DNA of 64,000 bases from the NCBI GenBank assembly GCA_965261595.1, contig CBDHDG010000004.1, positions 1 to 64,000 on the forward strand, read 5' to 3'. A program made the position numbers and the translations under genes. Each line of letters begins with the position of its first letter. Within the stretch, counting starts at the first letter, position 1. This DNA comes from a bacterium. Its GTDB lineage: Bacteria; UBA8248; JACPRG01; G963555815. The notes beneath the pieces are model-generated. The model had not been told where the DNA came from. It saw nothing but the letters and a program-made list of their open reading frames with translations, and made no database searches. Shown piece by piece: positions 2,413 to 50,538 of this stretch.

Positions 2413-2984
2413 GAGAGACCCTGCACGCCTTGCCGCGTGCGCCCGGACGGCGTGCGCCTGAACGAACCGGACGGGGCCGCAAGATCCTGCTCTGGATGGC
2501 CATGCTGGCCGCCCTGTGGCTCGTCGCGGTCTCGCGCGTCTACGTCAACGCGAGCTGGTCCGACGGAGCCTGGGGGTATTTCGTGCTGCCCCTCGTGGGA
2601 GAGTTCCAACGGGGCGACGCGGTCCTGTTCGACCCACCCGAGGAGGCCGGCTCGGGGATCCCCTACCTCAAGACCGTGCGCGGCCTGCCCAGAGACCGGG
2701 TGGAGGTGGACAGGGAGCGCCGGGTCTCGGTGAACGGCGCGGTCCTCGGCGTTGCCAAGACGCATGCGCTTGATGGGCGCAGGCTCGAGGCGATCGGGCC
2801 GGGCGTGATCCCGCCGGGCCGCTACTACGTCCACGCCGATCACGTGGACAGCCACGACAGCCGCTATTCGGAGATCGGGCTCATCCCGCAAGAACGCATC
2901 CGGGGCCGGGCCTGGGCCCTGCCCGACGTCCCCTGGCTCGGGCTCAAGGGACCGCTCGCCAAACCCGAGGAGGCGCGGCCATGA
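2409..2984 (+). CDS. S26 family conjugative signal peptidase (TrhF/TraF-like)
   Basis: VNASWS, YLKTVRGLPRD, HVDSHDSRY motifs; ATG at 2409 overlaps the trbI stop. Confidence 0.8.
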   Translation: MRETLHALPRAPGRRAPERTGRGRKILLWMAMLAALWLVAVSRVYVNASWSDGAWGYFVLPLVGEFQRGDAVLFDPPEEAGSGIPYLKTVRGLPRDRVEVDRERRVSVNGAVLGVAKTHALDGRRLEAIGPGVIPPGRYYVHADHVDSHDSRYSEIGLIPQERIRGRAWALPDVPWLGLKGPLAKPEEARP

Positions 2985-3652
2985 CGCGGCGTGTTCTCCT
3001 GTCCCGTCTTCGGCTCATCGCGATTGCCTGCGTGCTGATGCTCGCGGCGCGGCCCGTACCCGCGAAGGACCTTGGCGTGCGCGGCGCGGTGTGGCCCATC
3101 GCCGAGCCCGACCTGCTCGAACGGATCGAGGCCCGGCTTGAAGCGCTGGAGTCCTCGGGCGACCTCACCCGCATGCGCCGGGAGGCCCTGGACCGGGGCC
3201 GGGAGCGCATCGAGGCGCCCGGGCGCGTCGAGGGCATCGGGCCCGCGCGCGTCCGTCGCACCCGGCTGTTCGATCCTTCGATCACGGTCGAGCAAGACGT
3301 CCGGGCGCACGATGGGACCCTGATTGCGGCCCGGGGCGCTCGGATCAACCCCCTCGAGGTGTACCCGCTGACCCGGGATCTGCTGTTCATCGACGGCGCG
3401 CGGCCGGCCGAGGTCACCTGGGCCCTCGGCCACGAACGGCCCGCGAAGATCGTGCTCCTGGCGGGCCGCCCGCTGGACCTGATGCGGCCCCACGAACGGC
3501 CGTTCTTCTTCGACCAGAACGGCCGGCTTGCGAAACGTTTCGGGCTCCGCGCCACCCCGTCCCTGGTCGCGGCCGAGGGATCCATGCTCAGGATCACGGA
3601 AGTGCCGCTCGACGACGAAGCCAATCCCGCGACCATCGGAGGGCGGCCATGA
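2981..3652 (+). CDS. traW: F-type conjugative protein TraW
   Basis: DLGVRGAVWPIAEPDLL, FDPSITV, NPL, FFDQNGRL motifs. Confidence 0.9.
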   Translation: MTRRVLLSRLRLIAIACVLMLAARPVPAKDLGVRGAVWPIAEPDLLERIEARLEALESSGDLTRMRREALDRGRERIEAPGRVEGIGPARVRRTRLFDPSITVEQDVRAHDGTLIAARGARINPLEVYPLTRDLLFIDGARPAEVTWALGHERPAKIVLLAGRPLDLMRPHERPFFFDQNGRLAKRFGLRATPSLVAAEGSMLRITEVPLDDEANPATIGGRP

Positions 3653-4650
3653 GATCCCTGAAGACCGTCTGCACGGCGCTGGTCCTTGCCGGAGCCCTGT
3701 CCACGGGGACCGCTTCCGCCCAGTCCTGCACCGGGCGTTTCGTGAACCCCGTCACGGACGTGTGCTGGGAGTGTCTTTTGCCGATCTCGATCGGGCCGAT
3801 CCGCATGGGCAGCGCCACGGGCGCGCCGGACACGCCCAATCCGGGATCGCCGATCTGCCTCTGCGGCAAGCCGATCCCCCGGATCGGACTCTCCCTGGGC
3901 TTGTGGGAGCCGGCGCGGCTGATCGACGTCAGCCGCGCGCCCTGGTGCTTCCCCAATCTCGGGGGCATGACCATCGACCCGGGCCTGCCCGCGGGGCGCG
4001 GACGTACTGGCTCCTCGGGCGGCGACGGCGCCTCGGGCTCTGTGTGGCACGTCCATGACTACGTCTATCCGCTCCTGTCCTGGATCGGGGCCCTGCTCGA
4101 CATCGGCTGCCTTGAAAGCGGGGGGCTCGACATCGCCTGGGTCTCCGAGCTCGACCCGGCCTGGCTCGACGACGAGCTGTCCTTCCTGTTGAACCCGGAA
4201 GCCGCGCTGTTCGCGGACCTGCCGGCCCAGGCGGCCTGCGCCGCCGATTGCGCCGCCGCCTCGGCTGGCCTGCCGCTCGACCCCCTGTTCTGGTGCGCGG
4301 GCTGCCAGGGCGGGATGTATCCCCTGACCGGCAACGTGGCCGCCCACGTGGGCGGGGTCCAGGCCTCGCTCCTCGTGGCCCAGCGGCTCGTGTTCCGTCT
4401 TCACCGGCTGCTGCTCGCCTGGGGCACGTCGGGGCCGGCGGCGCTCTGCGGGCGCTATCCCATGCCCATCATGAAGAAGTCCCAGTACCGCTGGCAGATG
4501 ACCCAGCCGGTCCCGGCCACGTCGCCCCTCACCGGCTGCAACCCCACGGGCCGGTCCTCGGTGATCTGGGAAGCGCTGCGCGAGCTGCCGGTGGCGGGCG
4601 AGAACTTCGGCTATCTGCTCTGGCGCAAGCGCAACTGCTGTCTGCTCTGA
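3649..4650 (+). CDS. traU: F-type conjugative protein TraU
   Basis: CTGRFVNPVTDVCWECLLP, WEPARL, C-terminal WRKRNCC. Confidence 0.93.
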   Translation: MRSLKTVCTALVLAGALSTGTASAQSCTGRFVNPVTDVCWECLLPISIGPIRMGSATGAPDTPNPGSPICLCGKPIPRIGLSLGLWEPARLIDVSRAPWCFPNLGGMTIDPGLPAGRGRTGSSGGDGASGSVWHVHDYVYPLLSWIGALLDIGCLESGGLDIAWVSELDPAWLDDELSFLLNPEAALFADLPAQAACAADCAAASAGLPLDPLFWCAGCQGGMYPLTGNVAAHVGGVQASLLVAQRLVFRLHRLLLAWGTSGPAALCGRYPMPIMKKSQYRWQMTQPVPATSPLTGCNPTGRSSVIWEALRELPVAGENFGYLLWRKRNCCLL

Positions 4651-4660
4651 GGAGGCTGAC

Positions 4661-5374
4661 ATGAACGATAACCCGATTCGTAAGACCATCCCGGCTCTCG
4701 CCTGCGCGCTCGTGATGGCGGCCTGGTGCGGCCCGGCCCGGGCCCAGGGAAAAGCCAAGGACTTGGCGCGCGATACTGTCGATCAGGTCCTGCGGCAACC
4801 GGCAAAAGTCCGTGACGGGGACCTGGACGCCTGGTCGCGCTCGGTGATCGAGCGCGCGCTGGAACGCGCGGGCAAAAACGCCCCCGGGGCCTCCGGCCCC
4901 CTCCCGGCCGAACGTCATGCCGGCCGCGTTGCCCGCGGCCTTTCCGAGCGTCCCCATGGCCCCGAGGTCATCGTCTTCATGAGCCTCTCGGCGCCCGCGG
5001 CGAGCTGGCGGCAGTGGAGCCGCGAGGCGGCGCGGATCGGCGCGCCGCTGGTGCTGCGCGGGCTCGGCCCGGACGGGTTGCAGGCCACGGTGAAACGCAT
5101 CGGCCCGTACCTGGGCCGCAAGTCCGGCGCAACAATCGATCCGCGTCTGTTCCGGATCTTCGGCATCGAGGCGATCCCGGCCGTCGCGGTGGTCCCGGGC
5201 GGGGTCCCGCCCTGCACTAGCCGGGGTTGCGCCGCGGATCCCGCGCCGCCCCACGACCGCATCGCGGGGAACATCGGCCTGGAAGCGGCGCTCGAGGCCA
5301 TCGCCGCCGAGGGAGGGCCGGGCCGCGCGGCCGCGCGCCGCCATCTCGCAAGCCTGAGAGGAAACTTGCCATGA
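4661..5374 (+). CDS. trbC: F-type pilus assembly protein TrbC
   Basis: VFMSLS, LVLRG, IDPRLF..FGI.AIPA, DRIAGNI motifs. Confidence 0.85.
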   Translation: MNDNPIRKTIPALACALVMAAWCGPARAQGKAKDLARDTVDQVLRQPAKVRDGDLDAWSRSVIERALERAGKNAPGASGPLPAERHAGRVARGLSERPHGPEVIVFMSLSAPAASWRQWSREAARIGAPLVLRGLGPDGLQATVKRIGPYLGRKSGATIDPRLFRIFGIEAIPAVAVVPGGVPPCTSRGCAADPAPPHDRIAGNIGLEAALEAIAAEGGPGRAAARRHLASLRGNLP

Positions 5375-6570
5375 ACCGCAAGGACGACACGAACGAAAAT
5401 CCGGAACCCGGTTCCGATCGCAGCTTCGAAGCCCTCATGGAGGCGAAGCGGCCAAGGCTTCAGATGGCGCGAATCGAGGCCTGGGGACGCTTCCCTTGCT
5501 GGACGATGGCCGCGAAGGCCTTCGTCCTGGCCCTGGTGGTCCTGACGCACCTCGTCAACGGCCCCGCCCGGGCCGAAGACCCGGCAGCGGCGGCCCGCGC
5601 GATCGGCCAGGCGGGACAAGCCGCGGCGGGCGCCATCGCGAAGGATGCGGATTCCGCCGCCCATGTGCCGGGCTACGGTGGAACGAGCCTGCCAGAGAGG
5701 GGCCTGGGCGCGGGCGAACTAAGAAACGCCGCGAACCGGGTGATAAACGATCCCGCCGATCCCGGGGGCCAAGCCGGCCGCGCGGTGATCGAGGGTACGG
5801 TCAAGCGCCCGGACGCCCCGGTCAAGGCGGACGATCCGATGGTGAGGCGCGGGGACGGGATCCAAGGCGACGCCCATTCCCCCCTCTGGGGCGCGGACGG
5901 GATCGCCTCCGGATCGGTGAACGACTGCAAGGCGGGACTCGAGCGCGCCGGGGCCGGCGGCCATTGCGGCTCGGTCTCCTGGTGCGTGGGCGCCGAGTGC
6001 GGAACCGCGGCGTCCCGGGCCAACACCGGGTTCGTCGATTCGGCGGCCCGGCTCAACATGGCCATCGAGCTGGGCGGAGAGGAATTCGACCGCCAGACCC
6101 TCCGGTTCTTCAGGGGCGATCGCCAGTCCTGCCGGATCCAGTGGGGAGGCCTCGCCGATTGCTGCAAGAACTCGGGCGCGCTCGTGGGCGTGGCCGGCTG
6201 CACCAAGGAGGAACGCCTCCTGGCCGAGGAGCGCCATGCCGGGAACACGCATTACCTGGGCAAGGGATGCGCGAAGCGGATCTTCGGCGTGTGCATCCGC
6301 TGGAAACGTTCCTGGTGCGTGTTCGGCTCCAAGCTCGGGCGCATCCTGCAGGAAGCGACACGCGGCCAGCTCGGGATCGGCTGGGGCAGCTGCCGCGGCT
6401 TCACGGTCGATGAGATGGAACGCATCGACTTCGAGGCCGTGGACCTCTCCGAGTTCACCGAGAATCTGACCGACGGGTCGTATGAGCCCTCGATCGAGCT
6501 TCCGGAAGCCGGCCGAACCGGCGCGGTGATGCGTGAGCGCATCCACGGCTTCTACACCAAAAGCAAGTGA
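5371..6570 (+). CDS. traN: Mating-pair stabilisation protein TraN (short form)
   Basis: Cys-rich C-terminus DCC...HYLG..C...WCVFGSKLGRILQE..CRGFT..E...IDF..VDLSEF; start codon uncertain. Confidence 0.85.
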   Translation: MNRKDDTNENPEPGSDRSFEALMEAKRPRLQMARIEAWGRFPCWTMAAKAFVLALVVLTHLVNGPARAEDPAAAARAIGQAGQAAAGAIAKDADSAAHVPGYGGTSLPERGLGAGELRNAANRVINDPADPGGQAGRAVIEGTVKRPDAPVKADDPMVRRGDGIQGDAHSPLWGADGIASGSVNDCKAGLERAGAGGHCGSVSWCVGAECGTAASRANTGFVDSAARLNMAIELGGEEFDRQTLRFFRGDRQSCRIQWGGLADCCKNSGALVGVAGCTKEERLLAEERHAGNTHYLGKGCAKRIFGVCIRWKRSWCVFGSKLGRILQEATRGQLGIGWGSCRGFTVDEMERIDFEAVDLSEFTENLTDGSYEPSIELPEAGRTGAVMRERIHGFYTKSK

Positions 6571-18049: not shown

Positions 18050-18436
18050 ATGAACGAACAAAAGCAAGAGGGGGCTTTGGCGGAGGGCGCCCGCAGGGCG
18101 AACGGAGCCAAGGCCCCAGGGCATCGCAGTGAGCGGGGTCGGTTCTCCTGCCAGCGCAAGCGGGAGGCGGTCCTGCGTCTTTTGCGGGGCGAGAGCCTGG
18201 AGACGCTCTGCCGCGAGTTGGGCACGACAGCGGCTCGGCTTTCCGCCTGGCGCGAGGCGTTCCTTCGCGGGGGCGAGGCGGCGCTCAAAGCCCGCCCGGC
18301 GGATGAGCGGGACGAGGAGAACGCCCGGCTCAAGGCCAAGGTGGGCGAACTCACGATGGAGGGCGAGGTCCTGCGGGAGAAGATCGACCGTCTGGAGGCC
18401 GGCCGCCCTTTAGCCGGCAGGAGGTGGAGGCGATGA
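18050..18436 (+). CDS. IS3 OrfA (HTH + leucine zipper)
   Basis: RFSCQRKREAVLRLL...LKAKVGELTME. Confidence 0.85.
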   Translation: MNEQKQEGALAEGARRANGAKAPGHRSERGRFSCQRKREAVLRLLRGESLETLCRELGTTAARLSAWREAFLRGGEAALKARPADERDEENARLKAKVGELTMEGEVLREKIDRLEAGRPLAGRRWRR

Positions 18437-19341
18437 GTCAGGCCCGCTTCACCTCCACGGGCAGAGCCTACGGCCTGAAGCGGGTGTGCGCCCTTTGGGG
18501 CTTGGCGCGCTCCACGGTCTACGCGCAACGGCGGCGAGAGGCGGTCCCCGTTCATGAACGCCCCACGCCCAATAAGCGCGGCCCTGTGGGCCCGTGCACC
18601 GATGCGGAACTCCTCGGCCACATCCGGCAGGTCCTGGAGGACTCTCCCTTCCATGGCGAGGGCTACCGCAAGGTGTGGGCGAGGCTGCGCTTCGCGGGCA
18701 TCCGCACCAGCAAGGAGCGGGTGCGTCGCCTGATGCGGGAGGCGGGGCTTCAGGCTCCCCACCGGGTGGGCAAACCCCGAGGTCCCAAGGCCCACAACGG
18801 GACCATCCGCACCGAGCGGCCCGACCGAATGTGGGGCACGCACATGACGACGACGGTGACCACCGAGGAGGGGATGGCCTCGGTGTTCGTGGCGGTGGAT
18901 CACTGCTCGGTGGACTGCGTGGGGATCCATGCGGCCAAGAGCGGCAACCGCTTCGAGGCCCTGGAGCCGATCCGGCAGGGGGTCGCCGAGCGCTTCGCCG
19001 GCTTGGAGGCGGACGTCGCCGAGGGGCTTAAAGTTCGTCACGACCACGGCCCCGCCTATCTGTCCGATGACTTTCAGCGGGAGATCGCCTACCTGGGCAT
19101 GACCAGTTCGCCCAGCTTCGTGCGGGCGCCCGAGGGAAATGGCTACTGTGAGTGGTTTATCCGCATCTTGAAGGAGAATCTCCTGTGGGTGCGCTCTTTC
19201 GCCACCGTAGAGGAACTGCGGTGGGCGCTGCTTGAGTTCAAGAACCTGTACAACCATCATTGGATTCTCGAGGGCTACGGCTACCGAACGCCGGCCCAGG
19301 CAAGGCAGGAAAAACTCGCTCAAGTTGCGGAGGCCGCATGA
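18433..19341 (+). CDS. IS3 OrfB DDE transposase (first catalytic Asp changed to His in this copy)
   Basis: WGTHMT here versus WGTDMT in copies 2 and 3; RHDHG; PEGNGYCE. Confidence 0.85.
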   Translation: MSQARFTSTGRAYGLKRVCALWGLARSTVYAQRRREAVPVHERPTPNKRGPVGPCTDAELLGHIRQVLEDSPFHGEGYRKVWARLRFAGIRTSKERVRRLMREAGLQAPHRVGKPRGPKAHNGTIRTERPDRMWGTHMTTTVTTEEGMASVFVAVDHCSVDCVGIHAAKSGNRFEALEPIRQGVAERFAGLEADVAEGLKVRHDHGPAYLSDDFQREIAYLGMTSSPSFVRAPEGNGYCEWFIRILKENLLWVRSFATVEELRWALLEFKNLYNHHWILEGYGYRTPAQARQEKLAQVAEAA

Positions 19342-20659: not shown

Positions 20660-21404
20660 GAAGCTATAGGCTGGGCGATGTGGTCGCCTTTCATCCTCCG
20701 TGCAATCGGCTAGGCATTGATATGGGATGCGCGGTGCGGGCCACAGGCGCCTGTCGCGCCGCCTGCGCGGTGAGGCTGGAAGGTACGGTGGGTTGGGCTC
20801 CTGGGAGCGCGGGTGGTTGGCGACCGGCATGGAGGGGCGTCGAGATCTACTGCGCAGGCGACATTGAGCTGCTTGCGAGCGACCGCAATCCCGAAACTAC
20901 AACGATATGGGTCGGAACTTGGTCAACAGCCAGACCGCCGAGGTCGTCGGGGTGAACGGTGGCAAGGTGACGTTCCGTCTGGAGGACGGACGCATGCTCG
21001 ACATGAAGGCGGGTGATCCCCAGTTGCGACATATCGACCGAGCCTGGGCGTCGACCGTACGTGCGTTCCAGGGCCGGACGGTGGACACGGTCATCGCGGC
21101 GATGGAGGCCAACCATCCTAATCTCACCAACCGGAAGACGCTCTACGTGGAGATCAGCCGGGACAGGGACAGGGCGGAACTGGTGACCGACGATGCCAGG
21201 GCGTTGCGGGAGCGGCTCGATGCTGTGACCGGGGAGCCGATCGCGGCCCTGGAAGCGGTCGAGCCAGAGAAGGCGAAGCCCATGGACATCGGTCCGGAGG
21301 TGACCCACAGTCTTGACAGGGACGGCACCGCGCGGGAGTCCAGAGAGCAGACACCAGGGACAGAGAAGGCACGTGAGCCGCGGGGGGTCGAGATGGAGAT
21401 GTAG
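20660..21404 (+). pseudogene. Degenerate second copy of the relaxase 3' end
   Basis: Paralogous to about 16500-17250 (GDVVAFH..RLG; LVNSQTAEV..FRLEDGRMLDMKAGDPQLRHIDRAWASTV); frameshifted and lacks the relaxase domain. Confidence 0.85.
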
Positions 21405-21612
21405 GCTGACATGATTTCAATTGGGTCGGGTTTGCCGAATCGCGCATAAACTGTTAAAGTCGGGAGGTTGACTCCGAAAAGTGACGTTCGAGCGAAATGC
21501 TGGGCCGCTGTCGGCATTGCTCTGCAGGGTCTGGACGATGGAATCCTACAATATTATTGTTTTTCGCCAATGTTGATGTTTAGCGGTAAACTGCTTAGGA
21601 GGTTGACCGGAA

Positions 21613-21840
21613 ATGCCTATTATGCCTGAGCAGTGCCGCATGGTTCGGGCAGGCTTGCATTGGAGCCATGTCGAGTTGTCACGTCGATCGGACGTTGCGC
21701 CAGCCACCATAGCGGCATTCGAGAAAGGTCTCAGGACGCCCTATCCCAGAACCGTTCGAGATCTGGAAGCGGCCCTTGAGACAGCGGGAGTTAAATTCGT
21801 GAACGGCGTAGCATCCGTTAATAAGGATCGCGACGAATGA
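21613..21840 (+). CDS. XRE-family HTH regulator
   Basis: QCRMVRAGLHWS..ELS..SDVA..TI..FEKG; RBS AGGAGG; ATGA overlap with the next gene. Confidence 0.85.
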   Translation: MPIMPEQCRMVRAGLHWSHVELSRRSDVAPATIAAFEKGLRTPYPRTVRDLEAALETAGVKFVNGVASVNKDRDE

Positions 21841-22482
21841 GCAATGAAGTTGCATCGCCGGATATGCCGCCCTTGGCGTCGGTCACCACCGTACCGGTTG
21901 AACGGCTGGTGCTGGATCATAGCAACCCGCGTTTGATAAGCGTGGACGGCGATACAAACGATGTGGAAATCATCGCGCAACTCTACCGCGCGGAAGATCT
22001 TGGCGAGTTGCTCCAGTCGATCGCGTCCAACGGCTATCTGGACATCGAGCCTCTCATCGTCCTAGAGGAGAATGGGTGTCTAACTGTGCTTGAGGGCAAC
22101 CGCCGTCTGGCGGCTATCCGCCTATTCCGGGAATCGGATCTCACCGCCCGTCTCTCTGAGCAAGGAAAGATCAGGATCACGCTTCCGGATATCCCGGATC
22201 AATATCGAAACACGCTCGACCAAGTTTCGGTCTACCGCGTAGCCAGCCGTGAGGATGCGCGTTCGTTTATCGGGTTCAAGCACATAAACGGCACTGCTAA
22301 ATGGGAATCTTACGCCAAGGGCAAGTTCGCCGCTGACTGGTATCGCGGCGGCGGGGTTACGCTCAAGGGCGTAAACCGGATCTATAGCCGCGGGAAGGAT
22401 CGCGCCAAAGACGAAATGGATGACGGGTTGACCTACGGCGCATACTCCAGGTTTCGTGACCGTTCAAGAAAGGAGTCCGACC

Positions 22483-22953
22483 GTGAAGAAGAGAGTTTAC
22501 CTGGCAAACCCCTACGGGTTTTCACAACAACAGCAGCACGGGCTGCTTCCCGCCTTTGTAGAGGCGATTGGTTCGCTGGGAGCGGAGGTGTGGGAGCCCT
22601 TTCAGCGAAACAATCAGATCGACTTCACCGCGTCCGGATGGGCATACAAAGTGGGGCAAGCCGACCTGAAGGACGTTTTCGAGTCGGACGGTATTTTTGC
22701 CATCGTGAACGGCACCCCGCCCGACGAAGGAGTCATGGTAGAGCTCGGCGTCGCGATCGGCCTCGGGAAAAAGATCTTTCTCTTCCGCGACGATTTCAGA
22801 AGATGTACAGAATCGGAAGTTTATCCCCTGAACCTCATGCTCTTCACCGGTCTCCCTGAATGGGGGTGGGAAGACCATTACTATACGTCCGTGAGCGAGA
22901 TCCCTTCTCCGAAGAAGGCGCTGGCCCGGTGGCTGCGTGGTGAACTCGACTGA
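22483..22953 (+). CDS. Nucleoside 2-deoxyribosyltransferase family protein
   Basis: VYLANP.GF, DL..V.ESD.IFA.VNG.PPDEG..VELG.A, NLML motifs; AAGGAG RBS before GTG. Confidence 0.85.
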   Translation: MKKRVYLANPYGFSQQQQHGLLPAFVEAIGSLGAEVWEPFQRNNQIDFTASGWAYKVGQADLKDVFESDGIFAIVNGTPPDEGVMVELGVAIGLGKKIFLFRDDFRRCTESEVYPLNLMLFTGLPEWGWEDHYYTSVSEIPSPKKALARWLRGELD

Positions 22954-22983
22954 CCTGATACGCGACGCTATGATAGATGTTGA

Positions 22984-24651
22984 CCGGAATTTCCCATATC
23001 AACTTGCTTGGGTGGTTTCCGGTCCCCTTTCCCGATGAAAACCAGTTGATCCCCTTCCGATGGGTCTGTCAAGAGCCTTCCAACCCTCCGCAACAAGGTG
23101 CTGACGGCCATCGACTGCCCCAAAAGGCGGACCCTCGCCCTTCGGTCCCCTTTATTCGCGGTTCAACCCGTTAACCAATCACCTCATGCTGCCGGGAACC
23201 CTCTGCACAAGGTTAGACCGGCACCGGCCGTAATCGGTTGATTCGGTCCAGGATGATGGCGAACTCTTCCCTGGATACCGCTACTTCGGCCAATTGAAAG
23301 ATGATCTGCCGGGCGTGCCGCACAATCCTCCCGCCCATTTTGATGAGCTTGACCTGGAGGCTTCGCAGCGACCAGTGCTTGAGCCCCCTGGGCAAGGCTA
23401 GCCTGCGCAGGAAATTGCCCAGGTTGTACGCCAGGACGAAGAGAAGGAGCCGCACCTGGTTGCACACGAACCGGTGACAGGAAAGGCGTGTCCAGTTCAG
23501 GGCGTACTTGCCTTCCTTGATCCATTGCTCGGCTGTGCCTCGCTGGTTGTAGAAGTGCACGACCCCCTCGGGTCGAGCCGTCAGGTTCGTGACAATGAAT
23601 CCGACGCGAGGGAAGAGTTCGCCTGAGTGCCATTCCACCTTCGCCACGACCCGCCGGGAACGGTCCCAGCTTCCAGCCTGATACCGGAAGTCGTAATAGA
23701 AGATGATGGGTCTCTTGGGCGGGCGACCGACCGGGCGGGTGAGGAGGAAGTCGATCTCTCGCTGCACCACGTCGTTGGCGGGAAGGCGGATGGCGTAAAG
23801 GAAGCTGTGCGCTTCCAGGCACTCATAGACCTCCGGGCGCGCAAAGGCGGCATCGGCTCGGAAGTAACGGCGAACACCCGCCCGCTCATACCGGGCCGCG
23901 ATGGGCGAAAGCAACTCGCGCCAGCCATCGGCGCTGTGCACGTTGCCGGGGCGCAACATCGCCCCTTCGCAGTCCCCGAACTGGTTAAAGCAAAAAAGAG
24001 GGTGATAACAGGTGCAACGAAAGTGGCCGTTGTAGGCCGCACCTTCCTGCTCCCCATGGACGGGGCTTTCCGAGCTGTCCATGTCCAGGATGATTCGCTG
24101 ATGGGGTGAGTGTGCCATGGCCCGGTCCACCCACTCCCGGTTCAGCTCGCTCCGGCCCCTTGAGATTCTCCTCCCTGGTGAGAACCTCGGTCTCGAACCG
24201 GCTCAGGGTGTTGGCGCCCGCCGCCTGCTTCTCAAGCGCTCGGCGGCCGACCACGGCTTGCATCGCGGGGTCCTGGGCCAACCGCTCGGCATCGTTGGTG
24301 TCTTCATACCCTGCCAAGCGGCTATAGACCGACTGGCGCAATAGCGGCGCCAACTCATGCTGGATGTTCCGGCCATGACGGATCTCTTGCAATTGCACTG
24401 GCGCTCTCACCGTCAAACCCAGCGCATCATCCAGCTCCCGGCAGGCCAGCAATCCCGCATCCGAAGTGATTCTGGTTCCGTGAAACTCAAGCCTCAGCCG
24501 ACGGTCAAAACGGATCTTCAAAGCCCCCTTCTTCGCTTCACCCATTGGGTCCCCTCGCAAGATGATGGCAGGGAGAGGCCAACACCTTGATCTTACACGA
24601 GAAAACGGCATTCGGTCCGACAAAACTTATGATCCATATGGGAAATGCGGG
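22984..24651 (-). mobile_element. IS1380-family element, copy 1
   Basis: IRs CCGGAATTTCCCATAT / ATATGGGAAATGCGGG enclose the transposase. Confidence 0.9.
23213..24545 (-). pseudogene. IS1380 DDE transposase, frameshifted near 24155
   Basis: ITSDAGLL, GYEDTND, LDMDSS, FRADAAF, YNQRGTAEQWIKEGK. Confidence 0.85.
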
Positions 24652-25267
24652 TCAAGAAGATTGCCGATCGAATCGGCGGCAAGCACGACACGGTCAAGCG
24701 CATGGTCAATGCGATCTATGTGCTGGAACAGGCTTAGGATGAAGGAATCTTTCGCATTGATGATCGGGCGAGCACGCGGTTCAACTTCTCGCACCTTTAC
24801 ACGGCGTTGTCTCGTGCGCCTTATATGCAGTTTCTCGGTCTGGAAGCTGCCTGGTTCCGCTACGATCCGAATCCGGATCCGGTTCCCGCTGATGGACTGG
24901 AACCGCTGCGCGAAGTTTTGAAGTGGTTGTATGGATCACGGGAGGCAGACGTGCTTCCGGTGGTTCAATCTCAAAATCCGGACATCAAGCATCTGGGAGA
25001 AGTCCTCGCCAGTAGCGAGGGACTGACGGTTCTTAGGGGGACCGGCTCGCTCTCCGAAGCCCATGCGAGCACACAGCCTGCCGACCGCAAGTTCTCCGAG
25101 TCGTTACTGAGAGCGAGGAGGGAAGTTCGTGAGGCATCCAACAGTCTGCGCGGATTTGATGGCCGCGATGTGGCGCTTGTCGACATCGCTGAAGACATTT
25201 TCGAGACGGCCCAGACGATTCATGACCGAATGAAAAAGAAAATGCGAGACGCCGCGATGGGTGGCGA

Positions 25268-26269
25268 ATGAGCGCTGCGGTCTATCTTCCATCCGATGAA
25301 TTCGGCGGCACTCAGCCTCCTGATTTGGACCTTGCGTCGGACTACCTTGAGTTGAAGGCCATTTTCTCTGCAGACAGACAGTCCTTCAGTGAGGACATCG
25401 TTGACGCATTGGAGCTCGCGGCCGAGGCTGAATTCGATGATGTCAACGCCGAGATAGAGGCTCGCGAGGATGTCGCAGCCGGTGCGGTGGCTCGCATGAC
25501 ATCGCGCAAACGCGCGCTTGCGACGGCCTACCCGTTCGACCTCGATGACCGTGGAGACGCGATTTTCTTCACCGCCGAACAGCCGGACCTCGGACAGGCT
25601 GCCTATCTGGTGTCGCTCTTGCTATCCAACCTTCGCGCGCTATCCCCTCTGCTCGACGGTTCCGAAATGCATCCGTCGGACCACGAGGTGCGCCAGCTTC
25701 GCCAGCATTTTCAATATTTCGCAACAGCCGCGATCGCAGCGGAGATCGGTGGACCTGCCTGGTCCTTTGGACATCCGCGGCCTGACGGTACGGGGTTCAT
25801 CAGAAAGCTCTCCGAAATCTGGGCCGTGCTGAAAGACGGAAGCGTCAAAGCCGACCCCGCTGCGCCAGCCGCCCCCAAGGACGATCAAGTGGACGTCTTC
25901 GCTTGGCGTGAGCAAAGAGACGGCTTACCCGGATTTCTCCTGGTTGCTGCGCAGGTGGCAACGGGCAGGAACTGGAGAGACAAGACGATCAAGTCCCATA
26001 TTGACCGTGTGTTTGCCGCTCGCTGGTTCGATCGTCCTCCCGCAACCGAGATGGTCGTGTACCACGTTGTTCCATTTGCTCGGCCGGATCACAAGTTCCG
26101 CGACGATGTATTGGTGCTGGGCAATGTGCTGCATCGCCTTCGCGTTCCGCGTCGGGTGACTGAGGCTGTTGACCTTGCCCAGAACGGCGTAACGATCGAG
26201 GCGATCGACAAGTTGGAAGCAGCGACGGAATGGATCAGGTCATACATGGAACGGGCGAGGGGCGCATGA
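25268..26269 (+). CDS. Hypothetical protein with putative PD-(D/E)xK-like nuclease core
   Basis: KDDQVDVFAW...AAQVATGRNW resembles a restriction-endonuclease-fold variant (inference); ATGA-coupled on both sides. Confidence 0.55.
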   Translation: MSAAVYLPSDEFGGTQPPDLDLASDYLELKAIFSADRQSFSEDIVDALELAAEAEFDDVNAEIEAREDVAAGAVARMTSRKRALATAYPFDLDDRGDAIFFTAEQPDLGQAAYLVSLLLSNLRALSPLLDGSEMHPSDHEVRQLRQHFQYFATAAIAAEIGGPAWSFGHPRPDGTGFIRKLSEIWAVLKDGSVKADPAAPAAPKDDQVDVFAWREQRDGLPGFLLVAAQVATGRNWRDKTIKSHIDRVFAARWFDRPPATEMVVYHVVPFARPDHKFRDDVLVLGNVLHRLRVPRRVTEAVDLAQNGVTIEAIDKLEAATEWIRSYMERARGA

Positions 26270-27357
26270 GACACCGTTTCCATTCCATTTGCCCGTATTT
26301 CGCGATGTTCCCTGAGACCTTCGTCGAGAAACATCTTGCGGCGACGAGATTCGATGGTGTGGTCTTTGATCCGTTTTGCGGGCGCGGCACCACGGTCTTC
26401 GAGAGTCTCATACGCGAACGGAAAGCCGCCGGATGTGACGTGCACCCCGTTGCCGTTTGTGTGTCCGGCGCCAAAAGTGATCCGCCGACGCGTTCCGAAG
26501 TCTTCGAACGGCTATCCACGTTGGAGGGAGAGAGCTTTTCGTTCAGAGCCAGCGACAACGGGGGGGAACTGGCCGAGTTCTTCAGTCTCTGTTTCGAACC
26601 GGCAACTTACGACCAGGTTTACTTTCTGCGGAACAACCTCGATTGGCGCAAAGATCGCACCGACCGCTTTATTGCCGCGCTGTCACTTGGGGCGCTACAC
26701 GGAGAATCTCACCGGAGCCTCAACTACTTCAGCAATCGAATGCCGAGGACGATCAGTACGAAACCGGCTTACTCAGTACGATGGTGGCGTAAGAACGGGT
26801 ATGAGCCTCCAACAAGGGATGTGTTTTCGATCCTGAGGCGCACGAATGACTACCGTTTCAAAACCAGTCCGCCCGACCGACGCGGTGAAGTAGCCCTGTC
26901 GGACGCGAGAGATGCGGCCGGAAGTTTTCCTCATCTGGCCGGAAAGGTAACGGACGTCATCACGTCGCCGCCCTATCTGGACACAACGAACTATCGTGAA
27001 GATCAATGGCTACGATTGTGGTTTCTTGGTGGAGAGGCGACCGTCAGCCATCGGCGCTATGACGGCCGTCACTACAATGTCGACAAGTACCGAACATTTC
27101 TGACCGAAGCATGGGCGGGCATGGCCCCGCTTCTGGCCAACGAAGCACGCATGGTCGTGAGGATCGGAGGACGAAAGCTCAATAGGGATGAGATCCTGGA
27201 AGCTCTCAGAAACTCGCTCGAATGCGGAATCAAGCGAAGCGTTCACCTTATTGATGCCGGCGTATCGTCGCCGGTCAGGCATACGCAGGCCAATGCATTC
27301 CGTGGCTCGAAACCGTCGCCGACGGTTGAGCACGACTTCTGTTTTCTGCTGCGGTAG
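26266..27357 (+). CDS. Amino (probably N4-cytosine) DNA methyltransferase
   Basis: Motif I FDPFCGRGTT precedes motif IV ITSPPY; ATG at 26266 overlaps the upstream stop. Confidence 0.88.
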   Translation: MRHRFHSICPYFAMFPETFVEKHLAATRFDGVVFDPFCGRGTTVFESLIRERKAAGCDVHPVAVCVSGAKSDPPTRSEVFERLSTLEGESFSFRASDNGGELAEFFSLCFEPATYDQVYFLRNNLDWRKDRTDRFIAALSLGALHGESHRSLNYFSNRMPRTISTKPAYSVRWWRKNGYEPPTRDVFSILRRTNDYRFKTSPPDRRGEVALSDARDAAGSFPHLAGKVTDVITSPPYLDTTNYREDQWLRLWFLGGEATVSHRRYDGRHYNVDKYRTFLTEAWAGMAPLLANEARMVVRIGGRKLNRDEILEALRNSLECGIKRSVHLIDAGVSSPVRHTQANAFRGSKPSPTVEHDFCFLLR

Positions 27358-27482
27358 TAGGCCTGCCCTGCATCGACGCAATCGCCGTCGGACAGGTGCG
27401 GTGACAAGCTCCGAGCAGAAAAGGTCCATGAACAGGGCGGCCGGACATTAACCCTGATTCTCCGGCACGGATCGCTTAGGCG

Positions 27483-28701
27483 GTGAACTCGACCTATCGA
27501 GATTGGCGAGAATATCAAGAAGCCGTGGCCAGCTTTTTTCGGGAACGCGGCTGCAAGGTTAACGTTGAAGCCAAGATAACAGGTGTTCGCGCAACGCACT
27601 GCATCGATGTGGATATCACCTTCCGTCAGCATGGCATTGAGTGCCGCTGGATAGTCGAGTGCAAGCTGTGGAAGGGACGCGTGAAGAAAGAGAATGTCGA
27701 AGCCCTGAAGAGCATCGTCGACGATATCGGAGCCGATCGCGGGATCCTCTTTTGCGAGAACGATTTTCAACCAAGTGCGCGAGATGCCGCTCGCAACACA
27801 AACGTCCTTCTCCAAACGTCCCTTGAGGAGTTCAAACGGACGGTGTGTCTTGACAAGACGCGCGCTACCCTCGTCTACAAGGAGTCCGACGAGCCCGACG
27901 CCTCGCCGGTCCAGTTGTTCCTGAACGGCGACCAGCCACACCATCTCCTGCTGTATGGCGGTCGCGTGTTCGTCGGAAACTGGGGAACAGGCAACATTTC
28001 AATAGTTGATCCCGCGACCAAAACGATCGAGAGCACAATCGCTCTGGACAAGTACGAAGCCTCGCCGTCCGCCGGCAACGGGCGGGTGATCAGATCATAT
28101 CTGCCCGGCGACATGGCGTGTGCCAATGAGAAAATCTTCGTTGGACAGGTTTTTTCTGATTTTGTCCTCGCCATCGACATCGACACGCAATCGATCGTCA
28201 AGCGAATCATGATCCCAGGGGGCGGCGAAGGTGCGATCGCTGCCTCTCAGGATGGGCGATGGATCTATTTCGCCAGCAACCAAGTGAATGGCTTCTTCAT
28301 CATCAACAGCGCAACCTACGAGTATCGGAAAGTCGATTATCCGACGGGAGGCAAGGGCAGTTTGTGTGTTCTTCCACATCCATTCAAACCGCTTCTCTAC
28401 GTCGGTATCCAGCGGGGCGGCAATCTCAACGGTAGAACCTACCGTGGTGGCAATTGCTTTCTCGCCACGTATGATCTGGCCGAGGACCGTTATGTCGAAT
28501 CACTCTATCTCGCAGAAGTTGAGAACGGCCGAAGCGACGACTCGATGCCGATCTGCTTGATATACGATGAGGAAGAAGAATGTCTCTTCGTAGGTATGTT
28601 TCAGTCACGGCAAGGTATCTGCCGCGTCGATGAGCGTGGCCGAGAGATTCTTGCGAACATCCGCTTCCTGCCAAACGCGAGGAACAAGCACTTTCGTTGG
28701 G
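27483..28701 (+). pseudogene. Mrr-like restriction endonuclease fused to a YncE/YVTN-like beta-propeller, 3'-truncated by IS3
   Basis: WREYQE.VA..F, IDV, IVECKLW, DIGADRGI motifs, then repeats such as VFVGNWGTGNISIVD and IFVGQ..SDFVLAID; runs into the IS end at 28702. Confidence 0.75.
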
Positions 28702-28743
28702 TGGACTTACCCCGGTTTCGTGGAGAGTTAAGCACTTGGGTTT

Positions 28744-29595
28744 TCAGGGTGTGCGTTGTTGTCTCCTTTCGTAGTTAACGGGTGACAGGTTGTCGATGGA
28801 GGAGTGCCGACGATGCGGGTTGTAGAAGCCCTCGATGAACCCGAACACCTCCATGCGCGCCTCGGCCCGGGTGCGGAAACTGTGGCGAGCGAGGAGCTCG
28901 CACTCCAGCGTGGCGAAAAAGCTCTCACACAGCGCGTTGTCGTAGCAGTCCCCGACCGAACCCATGGAGGGACGCCCGCCCGCCTGCCGGCAGCGCTGCC
29001 CAAAGGCGACCGAGGTGTACTGCGTGCTGCCCTGGTCGGAGTGGTGGATGACGGCCCGGGGACGGCGCTTATACAGCGCCATGTCGAGCGCGTCGAGCAC
29101 CAACTCGGCCCGCAGGTGTGTGGCCATCGACCACCCCACGATGCGCCGGCTGAACGCATCGAGCGCCACGGCCAGATACAAAAACCCCGCCCATGTCGGA
29201 ACGTAGGTGATGTCGGCCACCCACAGCCGGTCGGGGGCCTCGGCCGTGAAGTTGCGGTCCACCAGATCAGGGGCCGGCCGCGCCTCCTGCCGGCGCTGCG
29301 TCGTGCGCGCTCCCTTGCGCCGACTGACGCCCGCAAGTCCCGCCCCACGCATCAGCCTGGCGACGCGCTTGCGGCCCACACGCACTCCCTCAGCCTCCAA
29401 CTCGGCATGGACGCGCGGCACGCCGTAAGTCCCCCGAGAACGCTCGTGGATCGCCTGAATGCGTTTGGTGAGCGCCCGATCGGCACACGAGCGGGCACAC
29501 GGCGCGCGCCTGCGCCACGCGTAGTAGCCGCTGGAGGAGACGCCCAGCACCCGGCACATGGTGGCGGTCCGATACATGGCCTGGTTCGCCCTCAC
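28744..29595 (-). CDS. IS3 OrfB transposase
   Basis: LWVADITY, HHSDQG, CYDNALCESFF. Confidence 0.9.
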   Translation of the reverse strand: MRANQAMYRTATMCRVLGVSSSGYYAWRRRAPCARSCADRALTKRIQAIHERSRGTYGVPRVHAELEAEGVRVGRKRVARLMRGAGLAGVSRRKGARTTQRRQEARPAPDLVDRNFTAEAPDRLWVADITYVPTWAGFLYLAVALDAFSRRIVGWSMATHLRAELVLDALDMALYKRRPRAVIHHSDQGSTQYTSVAFGQRCRQAGGRPSMGSVGDCYDNALCESFFATLECELLARHSFRTRAEARMEVFGFIEGFYNPHRRHSSIDNLSPVNYERRQQRTP

Positions 29596-29906
29596 GAACC
29601 CGTAGATCCGGACGGGATCGAATCGGTATCCCGAGCAAACCAGGCCGCGGCTTTTGCTAAGATCTCCCGCTCCTGGCGGAGCTGTCGGTTCTCGCGGCGA
29701 AGTCGGCGCAACTCCTCCCGCTCATCGCTCGTGAGCCCGTCTTTGCGACGCCCCTCGTCAACGTCGGCTTGATGGGCCCAGGTGCGGATCGTCTGCGCCG
29801 AGGGCTCGAACTCGTGCGCCAGCGCCTCGGGCGTGCGTCCCGCCCGGACCAACTCTACCATCTGGCAGCGGAACTCCATTGGATAGCGTGGGTGAGTCTG
29901 TGGCAT
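29592..29906 (-). CDS. IS3 OrfA
   Basis: RYPMEFR...EELRRLRRENRQLRQEREILAKAAAWFA. Confidence 0.88.
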   Translation of the reverse strand: MPQTHPRYPMEFRCQMVELVRAGRTPEALAHEFEPSAQTIRTWAHQADVDEGRRKDGLTSDEREELRRLRRENRQLRQEREILAKAAAWFARDTDSIPSGSTGS

Positions 29907-29964
29907 CGTGAACACCTCCTTTACCCCCAAATCATCAGGTGTCCACCAAACCGGGTCAACTCCA

Positions 29965-30002
29965 GCGGTGACCCGAATGTTCTTTTGTTGTGTCTGCACC
30001 AT
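29965..30002 (-). pseudogene. 5' remnant of a paralogue of the RHH gene at 32407-32787
   Basis: MVQTQQKNIRVT versus MAQTLQKNIRAT; cut by the IS3 end. Confidence 0.7.
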
Positions 30003-39804: not shown

Positions 39805-40459
39805 GATTCCGTCTCCTTACGGGCCGGTGGTTGAGAGAGGCGGAGATGTCCTCCCCGCGGGACATCCGTCCGCCGCCCCGCTCACGGCCCGGCTCGGCCT
39901 CTTCGCGGCGCAGAGCGCGTCGGGAAATTGCGGCGGTGAGTTGTCGTTGCGGTGAATGTTTCGGTGGGTGGGAATGCGACCCCCTCGGCCACCACCGGGC
40001 TGCCCGTGGTTCGGACGGGGGGTATCCTAATCTACCAATCTTGGGGAAGTCTTACGTCCACGGGCTGTCGCCCACCTCATGGCGGGGGCAAAAACCACCA
40101 TCAGTCCAAGAGCCCTTCCTGGGGTCTGCAATCTCTATTTGGAATTCGAGCGGCAGGGCATTGTTGAGAATAGTAATAGTGTCCCATACGACGCGAAAGA
40201 TTTCCACAGCATTCGGATCGTTCCGATGCAAAAGCTCACTTAATCTGTGATCGATCTAATCTTTAAGTTTAACTCGAAACTGGTAGAATAGGAATTGTGC
40301 ACATCGCTTGAAACCGTGATAGATGGGAGACACAGGCGGGGAACAAAACGTAAACTTGGGTCTCGTCGATGTGATGTTCAACTTCTCGCACTTGCGGTCA
40401 TCGCAGTCCGAGTGACACGGTGATTCCGGGCTAGGCCGACCACCCAAAAGGCCCATTGT

Positions 40460-42140
40460 CCCGCATTTCCCATTTGGGTCATAAGATTCGACAGACCGAA
40501 AGGCGCTTTCTCATGTAAAATCAGCGTGTTGGCTTCCCCCTGCCATGTTCTCGCGGGGGAACCCTATGGGTGAAGCGAAAAAGACGGCATTGAGGGTCCA
40601 TTGTAACCGTAGGCTGAGGCTTGACTTTCACGGAGCCAGAATCACTTCAGATGCAGGATTGCTGGCCTGCCGGGAGTTGGATGATGCGCTGGGTTTGACG
40701 GTGAGAGTGCCAGCCCACTGGCACGAGATCCGTCATGGCCGGAACGTCCAGCATGAGTTGGCGCCGCTATTGCGCCAGTCAGTCTATAGTCGCCTGGCCG
40801 GGTACGAGGACACCAACGATGCCGAGCGATTGGCGAGAGACCCTGCTAGGCAAGCCGTAGTTGGCCGGCGGGCACTTGAGAAGCAGGCGGCCAGTACCAA
40901 CACATTGAGCTGGTTCGAGACGGAAGTTCTCTGCAGCGAGGAGAACCTGAGTAGGCTGAGGCAACTGAACACGGAATGGGTAGAGCGGGCCATGAGCCGC
41001 ACGCCGCATCAGCGGGTCATCCTGGACATGGATAGCTCGGAAAGCCGGGTGCACGGACAGCAGGAAGGGACTGCCTATAACGGTCACTTCGGTTCCCTGT
41101 GCGACCATCCCTTATTCTGCTTCAACCAGTTTGGGGACTGCGAGGGGGCGATGTTGCGTCTGGGCAACGTTCACAGCGCCGATGGGTGGCGAAAGTTGTT
41201 GGAGCCCATCACGGCCCGCTATGAGCACGCTGATGTTCGCCGTTCCTTTCGGGCCGATGCCGCCTTTACGAGCCCCGAGGTCTATGAGTACGTTGGAAGA
41301 GCGTGGCTTCCTCTACGCCATCCGGCTCCCTGCGAACGAAGTGCTCTACCCACGGATCGACTTCCTGCTGACTCGCCCGGTCGGTCGCCCGCCCAAGAGA
41401 CCCATCATCTTCTATCACGACTTCCGGTATCAGGCTGGAAGCTGGGACCACCCCCGAGGGGTGGTGGCGAAGGTGGAATGGCACTCAGGCGAACGCTTCC
41501 CTCGCGTCGGATTCATTGTCACGGACCTGACGGCTCGACCCGAGGGGGTCGTGCACTTCTACAACCAGCGAGGCACAGCCGAGCAATGGATCAAGGAAGG
41601 CAAGTACGCCCTGAACTGGACACGCCTTTCCTGTCACCGGTTCGTGTGCAACCAGGTGCGGCTCCTTCTCTTCGTCCTGGGGTACAACCTGGGCAATTTC
41701 CTGCGGAGGTTAGCCTTGCCCAGGGGGCTCAAGCACTGGTCGCTGCGAAGCCTCCAGGTCAAGCTCATCAAAATGGGCGGCCGGATTGTGCGCCATGCCC
41801 GGCACATCATCTTTCAGTTGGCCGAGGTAGCCGTATCCAGGGAGGTGTTCGCTCTCATCCTGGACTGGATCAACCGATTGCGGCCCGTACCTGTCTAACC
41901 GCTCTCAGCGCAGTCCACCCGAGGACATAATGGTGAATGTTCTGTCCCTTCCAGATGACCTGCTGGGAAGGCTCGCCTACCCGGAGGGGTGGCATGATTT
42001 TCAATGGCGGATAACGCTCCGATTAGGGTTTCAGGCACCTGAAATGGGATTGACAGGTCCGGGAGAGAGGGGTCTAATTGAGTTAAACAGTAACGAGGGG
42101 TCGGTACAGGCCTGTCCGGATTTGATATGGGAAATTCCGG
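40460..42140 (+). mobile_element. IS1380-family element, copy 2
   Basis: IRs CCCGCATTTCCCAT / ATGGGAAATTCCGG; transposase related to copy 1. Confidence 0.9.
40566..41898 (+). pseudogene. IS1380 transposase, frameshifted near 41292
   Basis: Same motifs as copy 1; frame switch at YEY|LEERGF. Confidence 0.85.
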
Positions 42141-50403: not shown

Positions 50404-50538
50404 CGGCCAATTTCAAACTCTCCACAGCGATCACAGTTGACGTGCCAATGAAAGTCAGAAATTTCCCTTTTCTCTCTTAGATTCGCCCCACAAACAGGGC
50501 AGCGATTCGTAGCCATTTCCATGTTAATTCCCTTTAAA

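Follow-up and report, generated by a model that had tools for sequence, protein, structure and literature searches.

A pseudogenized operon in a UBA8248 bacterium as the probable remnant of a restriction-modification-like module that joins a ParB-fold protein, a putative nuclease, and a DNA methylase

The first 64,000 nucleotides of contig CBDHDG010000004.1 (assembly GCA_965261595.1, from a bacterium of the GTDB lineage UBA8248), here called the window, carry an operon at positions 21613-27357 that is, on balance, probably a decayed copy of a widespread three-component restriction-modification (R-M)-like defence module. The list of open reading frames (ORFs) and the raw sequence show four genes on the + strand: an XRE regulator, a split ParB-like gene, a member of an uncatalogued family here called P333, and a DNA methyltransferase. 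The XRE-family helix-turn-helix (HTH) protein (21613-21840, 75 residues) is a candidate controller (C) protein, with matches to Pfam HTH_3 (6.9e-6) and PADLOC Control_protein (2.5e-8). The N-terminal fragment of the ParB-like gene (21837-22367, 177 residues) holds the NPR (Box I) and EGNRR (Box II) motifs. It matches 23 PADLOC PD-Lambda-5_A models over its N-terminal part only, the best at 5.7e-20, and TIGR00180 parB_part at 3.1e-5. The C-terminal fragment (24657-25271), recognized by tblastn against intact homologues, consists of an HTH domain and a helical C-terminal domain and has a premature TAG at 24735-24737. P333 (25268-26269, 333 residues) is an intact ORF for a putative divergent PD-(D/E)xK-like nuclease. 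The last gene, also intact, encodes a DNA amino-methyltransferase of 363 residues (26266-27357; PF01555, N6_N4_Mtase, 7.4e-11; PADLOC MTase_II, 1.2e-27) with an S-adenosylmethionine (AdoMet) motif near its N terminus and SPPY at about residues 234-237. Its longest ORF opens at 26230, and both the homology and the ATGA overlap begin at 26266.

The first-pass annotation of this DNA, made from the letters alone, had described four genes chained by ATGA overlaps and ending in an SPPY-type methyltransferase. This description is correct. Stop and start codons overlap at 21837-21840 (XRE and ParB-like), 25268-25271 (ParB-like and P333), and 26266-26269 (P333 and methyltransferase), and SPPY is found in the translation of a protein that matches the N6_N4_Mtase family. 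It was also right that the ParB-like gene is split, carries an in-frame TAG at 24735, and is the only gene of the set that is disrupted, as judged from the reading frame and from contiguous matches to intact relatives. The ParB-like frame loses homology after codon 177 (AAG, 22365-22367) and picks up again at 24657 in the same frame modulo 3; the N-terminal fragment aligns to residues 1-177 of intact homologues of 381 residues. In those relatives all three ParB-like pieces abut as a single 381-residue ORF, with a sense codon in place of the TAG (Q, E, K, A, or D in the homologous column). The window P333 retains every invariant residue of its family and the methylase ORF is full length. With two independent lesions, an IS1380-type unit and the premature TAG, the ParB-like gene of the window is dead, and therefore the restriction half of this copy is probably inactive. 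The window copy is a pseudogenized remnant.

The lesion that splits the gene is an insertion of 2284 bp (22368-24651) flanked on both sides by the direct repeat TCAAG. The left copy of this target-site duplication (22363-22367) coincides with the break in homology to intact ParB-like genes, the right copy lies at 24652-24656, and deleting the insert with one repeat restores the ParB-like frame. The extent proposed in the first-pass annotation was accurate, but the insert is a composite and not a plain insertion sequence (IS). It consists of an IS1380-type element of 1668 bp on the - strand (22984-24651) and a passenger segment of 616 bp (22368-22983, + strand), which holds an intact + strand gene for a nucleoside 2-deoxyribosyltransferase of 165 residues (22456-22953; PF05014, 1.1e-26). 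Members of the IS1380 family have CC ends and make duplications of 4-5 bp. Here the transposase is divided into two overlapping ORFs (24623-23985 and 24130-23213) that match DDE_Tnp_1_4 (PF13701) at 8.5e-97 and 3.6e-30, inverted repeats at 22980-22999 and 24636-24655 bound the element, and its ends at 22984 and 24651 are both CC-ended. The DDE_Tnp_1_4 transposase, terminal inverted repeats, and short target duplication are thus all present. These ends were set by comparison with a second copy at 40456-41900 and with fragments at 50538-51160. The second copy is 86% identical over 1446 bp and lies in the opposite orientation, and the two fragments in 50538-51160 are 73-83% identical. The 616-bp passenger is not part of the other IS copies in the window. 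IS1380-family elements are known to mobilize adjacent DNA by one-ended transposition in the style of ISEcp1, and by analogy the 2284-bp unit looks like a product of this kind of transposition of a passenger gene.

Relatives of the operon were collected in one scan of species-representative genomes, which gave 67 loci. By their record titles, these span Alpha-, Beta-, and Gammaproteobacteria, Binatia, Acidobacteriota, Chloroflexota, Rhodothermales, Nitrospirales, Gemmatimonadota, and Cyanobacteria. A ParB-like gene is found directly upstream of P333 in 63 of the 67 (tblastn with the window proteins). Both ORFs were callable in 56 loci, and in these stop and start overlap by 4 nt in 40, by 8 nt in four, and by 1 nt in three; most other overlap values are artefacts of taking the longest ORF. 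Given this recurrence and the exact 4-nt overlaps, the adjacency of the two genes exceeds chance. In a Bryobacterales metagenome-assembled genome (MAG; locus L004) the four-gene operon of the window is reproduced with the same 4-nt overlaps. Conservation of the gene neighbourhood had been set out as a check on the first-pass annotation, and the genes do co-occur, across phyla and in phages as described below. Decay of this sort is common in the relatives as well, with an insertion in the ParB-like gene of L022 and in P333 of L035, frameshifts in L049 and L061, and fragments in L058 and L065-L067. P333 is identical (L040 and L057) or nearly so (L025 and L063) in MAGs labelled as different phyla, which reflects either very recent horizontal transfer or binning errors. 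Three other genes of the region were considered as parts of the system and rejected: the passenger deoxyribosyltransferase, the FRG-domain gene upstream, and the Mrr_cat/beta-propeller gene downstream were each found in none of the 67 loci by tblastn.

The ParB-like protein had been taken for a nucleotide-binding protein of the ParB/Srx type, and this assignment is upheld by its predicted structure. A model of the intact protein from L004 (predicted local distance difference test, pLDDT, 84.6; predicted template modelling score, pTM, 0.73) gave 27 Foldseek matches in the PDB at E<=1e-3, all of them CTP-binding ParB-family proteins. These include Myxococcus and Bacillus ParB with CDP or CTPgammaS, Noc, KorB, Caulobacter ParB, and Spo0J, and the best (7bnk, 6sdk, 7ol9, and 8qa9) have a probability of 1.00. 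The structural alignments span about 255 columns, corresponding to the N-terminal domain and the HTH, and a sequence profile reaches Helicobacter Spo0J (PDB 4umk) at 2.7e-4. NPR in Box I and EGNRRL in Box II are invariant in 35 close homologues and in 10 homologues down to 24% identity; a GF(K/R)H..G..W..K segment is likewise invariant in those 10. The fold is therefore predicted to be that of the ParB CTPases with intact nucleotide-binding boxes, and binding of a nucleoside triphosphate (NTP) is predicted with it. The available sections of a 2025 survey of the ParB-CTPase fold describe many orphan members on mobile elements that bind CTP, ATP, or GTP, with a specificity that is unpredictable from sequence (PMC12704722). 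The triad of ParB-like protein, P333, and methylase is undescribed in those sections.

The C-terminal part of the protein is different from that of a partition protein. The last 170 residues form a helical region peculiar to the family, and the ParB_C dimerization domain (PF23552) was matched in none of 35 members, while a genuine ParB encoded near L034 shows all three ParB domains and serves as a positive control. No ParA-like gene was seen among the neighbouring ORFs scanned. A HEPN domain in this region, suggested by the R-x4-H-like string RFNFSH, was considered and rejected: the Arg and the His are unconserved in distant homologues, and the listed fold matches of the model include no HEPN structure.

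P333 is a large family that is absent from the domain libraries. It has 672 homologues at E<=1e-3 among 8000 candidates scored, and a profile search found 984 representative clusters at 50% identity, 431 of them at E<=1e-10 and 111 at E<=1e-30. The protein has no Pfam, NCBIfam, PADLOC, or PDB-sequence match. Even at E<=1, PADLOC matched none of nine P333-like proteins and did not match the P333-like half of P0393, a fusion protein discussed below. The motif D..VD..W...QVATG noticed in the first pass is real. Across 75 homologues, down to 25% identity, the residues D25, E28, R80, Y88, P89, Y113, L117, D205, D209, Q229, and R290 are invariant, and A231, G233, and K239 are nearly so. In a model built with 75 diverse homologues (pLDDT 95.6, pTM 0.94), D209 stands just before strand 210-214 and Q229 at the end of strand 224-230, an arrangement that appears to match the topology of the strands bearing "D ... 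(D/E/Q)xK" in PD-(D/E)xK enzymes. Nearly all of the top structural matches are restriction or PD-(D/E)xK nucleases. The best in the PDB are FokI (1.5e-3, template modelling (TM) score ~0.25) and MspJI (5.4e-3, probability 0.97), followed by HindIII, N.BspD6I, NgoMIV, Ecl18kI, EcoO109I, EcoT38I, Can2, and SduA, and the best named viral matches are a "restriction endonuclease", Mrr-like proteins, and PD-(D/E)XK proteins. In the Atlas, the closest cluster with a name is RE_HaeII; its 0.83 falls below the Atlas reliability line, so it serves as a lead only. The first-pass reading of P333 as an atypical nuclease thus gains from the kind of protein it resembles but not from the closeness of the match, and the models weakly suggest that it is nuclease-like.

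The third component is less uniform. The SPPY N6_N4 methylase family of the window lies directly downstream of P333 in 46 of the 67 loci (truncated or frameshifted in five). A methylase of the D12 class takes this place in eight loci, all Rhodothermales, and lies immediately upstream in three others (L010, L013, and L020). L055 has an N6_N4 protein of 898 residues upstream. An adjacent DNA methylase, often translationally coupled to P333, is therefore found in 58 of the 67 loci, in three architectures and from two Pfam families. A quick maximum-likelihood tree was made from 61 P333 rows; seven loci with a short or uncalled P333 were dropped, and L055 was labelled as having none. The eight loci with D12 downstream form one clade (support 98), and the three with D12 upstream are placed in three spots within N6_N4 clades. 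An ORF of about 900-980 residues with an N6_N4 methylase domain is also found immediately upstream of the ParB-like gene (about 2200-5900) in L038, L042, L046, L055, and L056, and could represent either a second system or one more component.

Deeper relatives extend the range of partners. In Vibrio campbellii (locus L068), a P333 relative at 25% identity follows a ParB-like gene of 372 residues and is itself followed by a D12 methylase in convergent orientation, with a PD-Lambda-5_B hit at 6.6e-95. Among phages, 16 records contain a match to the ParB-like protein. This match is located between the portal gene Q and gpA in vB_EcoM-12474III and Wphi, and beside tail genes in the Pseudomonas phage vB_PaeM-D14A. 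In these three P2-like phages the ParB-like gene is followed by a gene for a hypothetical protein of 299-369 residues and then by an oppositely oriented C5 cytosine methylase (PF00145, 1e-57 to 4e-62). The hypothetical proteins are P333 homologues over nearly their full length (hhalign probabilities 97.7, 98.3, and 97.8%; E values 1.5e-12, 1.6e-14, and 8.5e-13). This homology emerged through profile comparison, and tblastn with P333 gave no match in the phage collection. Yersinia phage L-413C retains only a shorter ParB-like gene. Since the SPPY N6_N4, D12, and C5 families are interchangeable around the ParB-like/P333 pair, the pattern is as in R-M systems: a restriction module that depends on a protecting enzyme would be expected to occur in this way, with three methylase families and in three gene orders.

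Fusions join the same parts. They were found in a search for longer ParB-like relatives. P0393 (718 residues) consists of a ParB-like part and a full-length P333 (residues 373-714, probability 100, E 5.5e-70), and P0391 (814 residues), a ParB-like relative, has P333 residues at 409-663. In P0392 (672 residues), a D12 methylase of the PD-Lambda-5_B type (3.1e-97) is joined to a ParB-like part (residues 313-660, E 8.1e-66). These fusions support a functional coupling of all three components, as far as predicted proteins can indicate it. P0133 (729 residues) was also tried as a P333 fusion and rejected; its extra part matches neither methylase nor ParB-like protein and is read as read-through into inserted DNA.

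The phage copies also bear on whether the triad has to do with defence at all. The available part of Vassallo et al. (PMC9519451) describes the variable slot of P2 between the portal gene and gpA as a defence hotspot. The ParB-like fold could alternatively belong to a module for mobile-element maintenance or epigenetic control, in which a silencer or partition protein like KorB or ParB acts with a partner and a methylase. The best structural matches, which include KorB, Noc, and ParB with their roles in silencing, occlusion, and partition, are in line with this, and so are the mobile surroundings of the loci (IS elements and part of a relaxase gene in the window, phages and plasmids elsewhere) and the nine of 67 loci without a detected methylase among the flanking ORFs scanned. 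The ParB C-terminal dimerization domain was not detected, however, and parA is missing among the neighbours scanned; the position in the P2 slot, the exchange of one methylase family for another, and the resemblance of P333 to restriction enzymes speak more for defence. A non-defence role is thus quite improbable. Neighbours elsewhere include a Type ISP-like enzyme (L034, 1832-4945), a 1272-residue SIR2_2 protein (L037, 1943-5761), an SNF2/PLD protein (L049, 2408-5590), and a Fic protein (L010, 8170-9585), which suggest defence-island-like surroundings.

The XRE gene had been proposed as the regulator of an R-M operon. It does match R-M controller proteins, as the PADLOC hit indicates, but it is not a conserved member of the set. 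Searches with a hidden Markov model (HMM) of the XRE protein found a homologue in just eight of the 63 loci that have a ParB-like gene, each time directly adjoining the start of that gene, and XRE is therefore an optional first gene. The DNA at 21548-21578, about 35-65 bp upstream of the XRE start, holds two operator-like boxes, ACAATATTATTGT and CCAATGTTGATG, which are candidate C-boxes. A palindromic core centred on AAnnTT is found at the same place in nine aligned XRE-bearing loci, as candidate sites at the level of an alignment, and L035 and L018 have perfect palindromes of 12-14 bp. A promoter and terminator scan of 21300-27700 gave nothing above the shuffled expectation.

The closest described system is PD-lambda-5. 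In the sections of Vassallo et al. 2022 that are available (PMC9519451), it is listed as "ParB/HEPN, methyltransferase", two coding sequences over 2461 bp from a P2-like prophage of E. coli ECOR7, and it gives broad protection and needs an mrr-deleted host. The triad shares with it a protein with a ParB-type N-terminal domain, a DNA methylase, and the P2-like prophage context. The ParB-like N-terminal domains of related loci match 23-25 PD-Lambda-5_A models, and D12 methylases of related triads match PD-Lambda-5_B (1.9e-42 in L023, besides L068 and P0392 with the values given above). The differences concern the remaining parts. The matches to the A models, which have 428-613 positions, end by residue ~160-234, and the ParB-like protein here has 381 residues and no conserved HEPN R-x4-6-H motif. 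The methylase of the window matches MTase_II models and not PD-Lambda-5_B. PD-lambda-5, as far as the available description goes, has two genes and no P333, while P333 is a third conserved gene, placed between the other two or next to them, in 63 of 67 loci here. From these comparisons the triad appears to be a PD-lambda-5 relative with a different, separately encoded effector, and its D12-methylase variants would probably be scored as PD-lambda-5 by HMM-based finders. The ParB fragment of the window also matches the PADLOC candidate PDC-M38A (715 positions), within its first 150-230 positions. PDC-M38A was considered as a fusion of ParB-like protein and P333 and set aside, given that even P0393 matches just positions 57-199.

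This likeness also supports a different division of labour, in which the triad is a PD-lambda-5-type module for R-M plus abortive infection, the role of effector or sensor falls to the ParB-like protein, and P333 acts as an accessory such as an adaptor, a specificity factor, or a toxin-neutralizing protein. ParB N-terminal domains have been annotated as nucleases, which would suit such a role. Both sets of PD-lambda-5 models are matched, the A models by the ParB N-terminal domain and the B models by the D12 partners, and PD-lambda-5 works with ParB/HEPN and methylase alone according to the available part of its description (PMC9519451). However, the A matches stop at about residue 160-234 of models with 428-613 residues and the R-x4-H-like string is unconserved in distant homologues. 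P333 equals the ParB-like protein in conservation and has its invariant acidic residues on a restriction-enzyme-like core, so this arrangement is considered unlikely.

The reading as an R-M-like module with P333 as the nuclease invites comparison with better-known enzymes. As in Type II R-M systems with a C protein, an XRE/HTH candidate controller can come first in the operon with candidate palindromic boxes upstream, the genes are translationally coupled, and a methylase with AdoMet and SPPY motifs stands beside a putatively PD-(D/E)xK-like protein. Unlike in those systems, the restriction half consists of two obligatorily linked proteins, one of which has the fold of a ParB NTP switch, and the controller is found in just eight of 63 relatives. 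In CglI/NgoAVII with its R and N proteins, LlaJI, and McrBC, a nuclease subunit and a separate NTPase subunit are encoded next to a methylase. The NTPases of those systems are P-loop or AAA+ proteins, whereas the putative NTP-binding partner here has a ParB/Srx fold. With the clamps ParB, KorB, and Noc the ParB-like protein shares the fold of the N-terminal domain and HTH, the NPR of Box I, and the GNRR of Box II, but it has a private helical C-terminal domain instead of ParB_C and a nuclease-like partner instead of ParA or KorA. A search of the literature, which was not exhaustive, found no description of the triad of ParB-like protein, P333, and methylase, and the main text of Rousset et al. 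2022 mentions neither ParB nor a methylase.

These comparisons suggest a scheme in which the DNA methyltransferase would mark host DNA and a tightly coupled pair, the ParB-fold protein and P333, would form the restriction half as a physical complex. The ParB-fold protein would contribute an NTP-binding N-terminal domain with Box I and Box II, an HTH domain for DNA binding, and its private helical C-terminal domain. The C-terminal half of P333 would supply a PD-(D/E)xK-like core (D205/D209 ... Q229-x-A ... K239). In a minority of loci, the window included, an XRE controller and its upstream operator-like boxes would come first, like the C-proteins of Type II R-M systems. The ParB-like protein may bind DNA and, by binding or hydrolysing a nucleotide, switch on the recruitment or licensing of P333, which in turn may cut DNA without the methyl mark. 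Cleavage would then depend on NTP and be sensitive to methylation, and an anti-phage function would follow. In a more specific version, which is possible but doubtful, the ParB-like protein is a nucleotide-switched clamp turned sensing and loading subunit; it would settle on DNA that lacks the modification, close when it binds NTP, and bring in P333 or activate it as the nuclease. This would be the first class of R-M driven by a ParB-CTPase switch and not by a P-loop motor. It would be widespread and partly filed, or mis-filed, as "PD-lambda-5" by HMM finders because two of its three genes match those models.

Several findings weigh against this R-M-like reading. The P333 motif is noncanonical, with Ala where the lysine of PD-(D/E)xK enzymes normally sits. 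Foldseek gave no match at E<=1e-3 in the PDB or BFVD, and the TM scores are 0.15-0.29. No methylase was found among the immediately flanking ORFs scanned in nine of the 67 loci (L001, L008, L011, L015, L017, L034, L047, L058, and L065), and among them are L001 and L034, the two closest relatives of the window; in L058 and L065, P333 is itself truncated. It would be unexpected for a lethal restriction pair to stand alone without a methylase. L010, with a D12 methylase, and L027, with an N6_N4 methylase, are 82.9% identical in the ParB-like protein and 77.1% in P333. No hypervariable segment separates them, and the HTH recognition helix is invariant across both methylase types. Modules that are about 80% identical and have different methylases do not readily agree with an R-M pair matched in sequence, unless the target is shared; it appears that either the methylases share a target or the pair reads no methylase-matched sequence. 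Each of the fusions is a single cluster of predicted metagenomic proteins, and since overlapping genes here lie in different frames, a sequencing error of a single base could be enough to join them. Finally, the validated relative, PD-lambda-5, has a different effector, and the triad is known from sequence comparison. L013 (D12 upstream) and L007 (SPPY N6_N4 downstream) repeat the contrast of L010 and L027; over both comparisons, ParB-like/P333 pairs with identities of 73-83% and 76-77% adjoin methylases of different families, and neither protein has a hypervariable region.

The loci without a methylase and the near-identical modules beside different methylase families would both suit a modification-dependent, Type IV-like pair, with neighbouring methylases that are unrelated or belong to other systems. 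Such enzymes exist in GmrSD, BrxU, and SspE, where a DUF262 ParB/Srx-like NTPase is fused to a DUF1524 His-Me nuclease in a single polypeptide, and this HNH-type nuclease acts against modified DNA without a cognate methylase. The likeness lies in a ParB/Srx-fold nucleotide-binding domain coupled to a nuclease, putative in the present case, which is the GmrSD type of architecture. But a methylase is adjacent in 58 of 67 loci and often translationally coupled to P333, one protein fuses methylase and ParB-like parts, and neither the window proteins nor the ParB-like members have a Pfam match to DUF262 or DUF1524. A Type IV-like pair is accordingly a very remote prospect. For the R-M-like module, the outline given in the first-pass annotation is backed by the linkage of the genes, the methylase swapping, and the ParB fold, but the XRE gene proved optional and the nuclease fold is weakly indicated. 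The first pass also recognized no named system in the set; the literature searched indeed gave no described match to the triad and P333 is unnamed in any library, but the validated PD-lambda-5 shares the ParB N-terminal domain and sometimes the methylase. The system is best filed as R-M-like and PD-lambda-5-related and not as categorically new.

If the triad restricts DNA, it would be a mechanistically distinct class of R-M, with a ParB-fold nucleotide switch and a nuclease family absent from domain libraries, and it would give a concrete function to "orphan" ParB-CTPase proteins of mobile elements. Intact copies in the cultivable E. coli phages Wphi and vB_EcoM-12474III make this directly testable. 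Published PD-lambda-5 counts may mix two effector architectures because loci with a D12 methylase match both PD-lambda-5 models. The copy in the window is of value because it points to the family and is an apparent example of an IS1380-type element that mobilized a passenger gene into a defence operon.

The surroundings of the operon are themselves rich in mobile and defence-related fragments. Upstream, an FRG-domain protein (PF08867; 19745-20419) matches the PADLOC single-gene candidate PDC-S15 at 1.7e-44. The match begins at position 66 of the 300 in the model, and the gene may be truncated at its 5' end. An ORF of 165 residues (20907-21404) is a fragment whose matches to conjugative relaxases (TraI/TraA, UvrD_C_2) are confined to their C-terminal helicase part, which suggests a decayed conjugative element. 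Downstream, a protein of 431 residues (27483-28778) combines an Mrr_cat restriction-endonuclease domain at its N terminus with a beta-propeller in its C-terminal part. A tRNA scan of the 64-kb window found none. Transposase-like ORFs lie on both flanks (18424-19341 and 28744-30002) and resemble the IS3 OrfA/OrfB type, as judged by eye from the translations. G+C is 0.64-0.70 in these flanking transposase regions versus about 0.55 in the operon, and the IS-rich surroundings suggest a degraded mobile or defence island.

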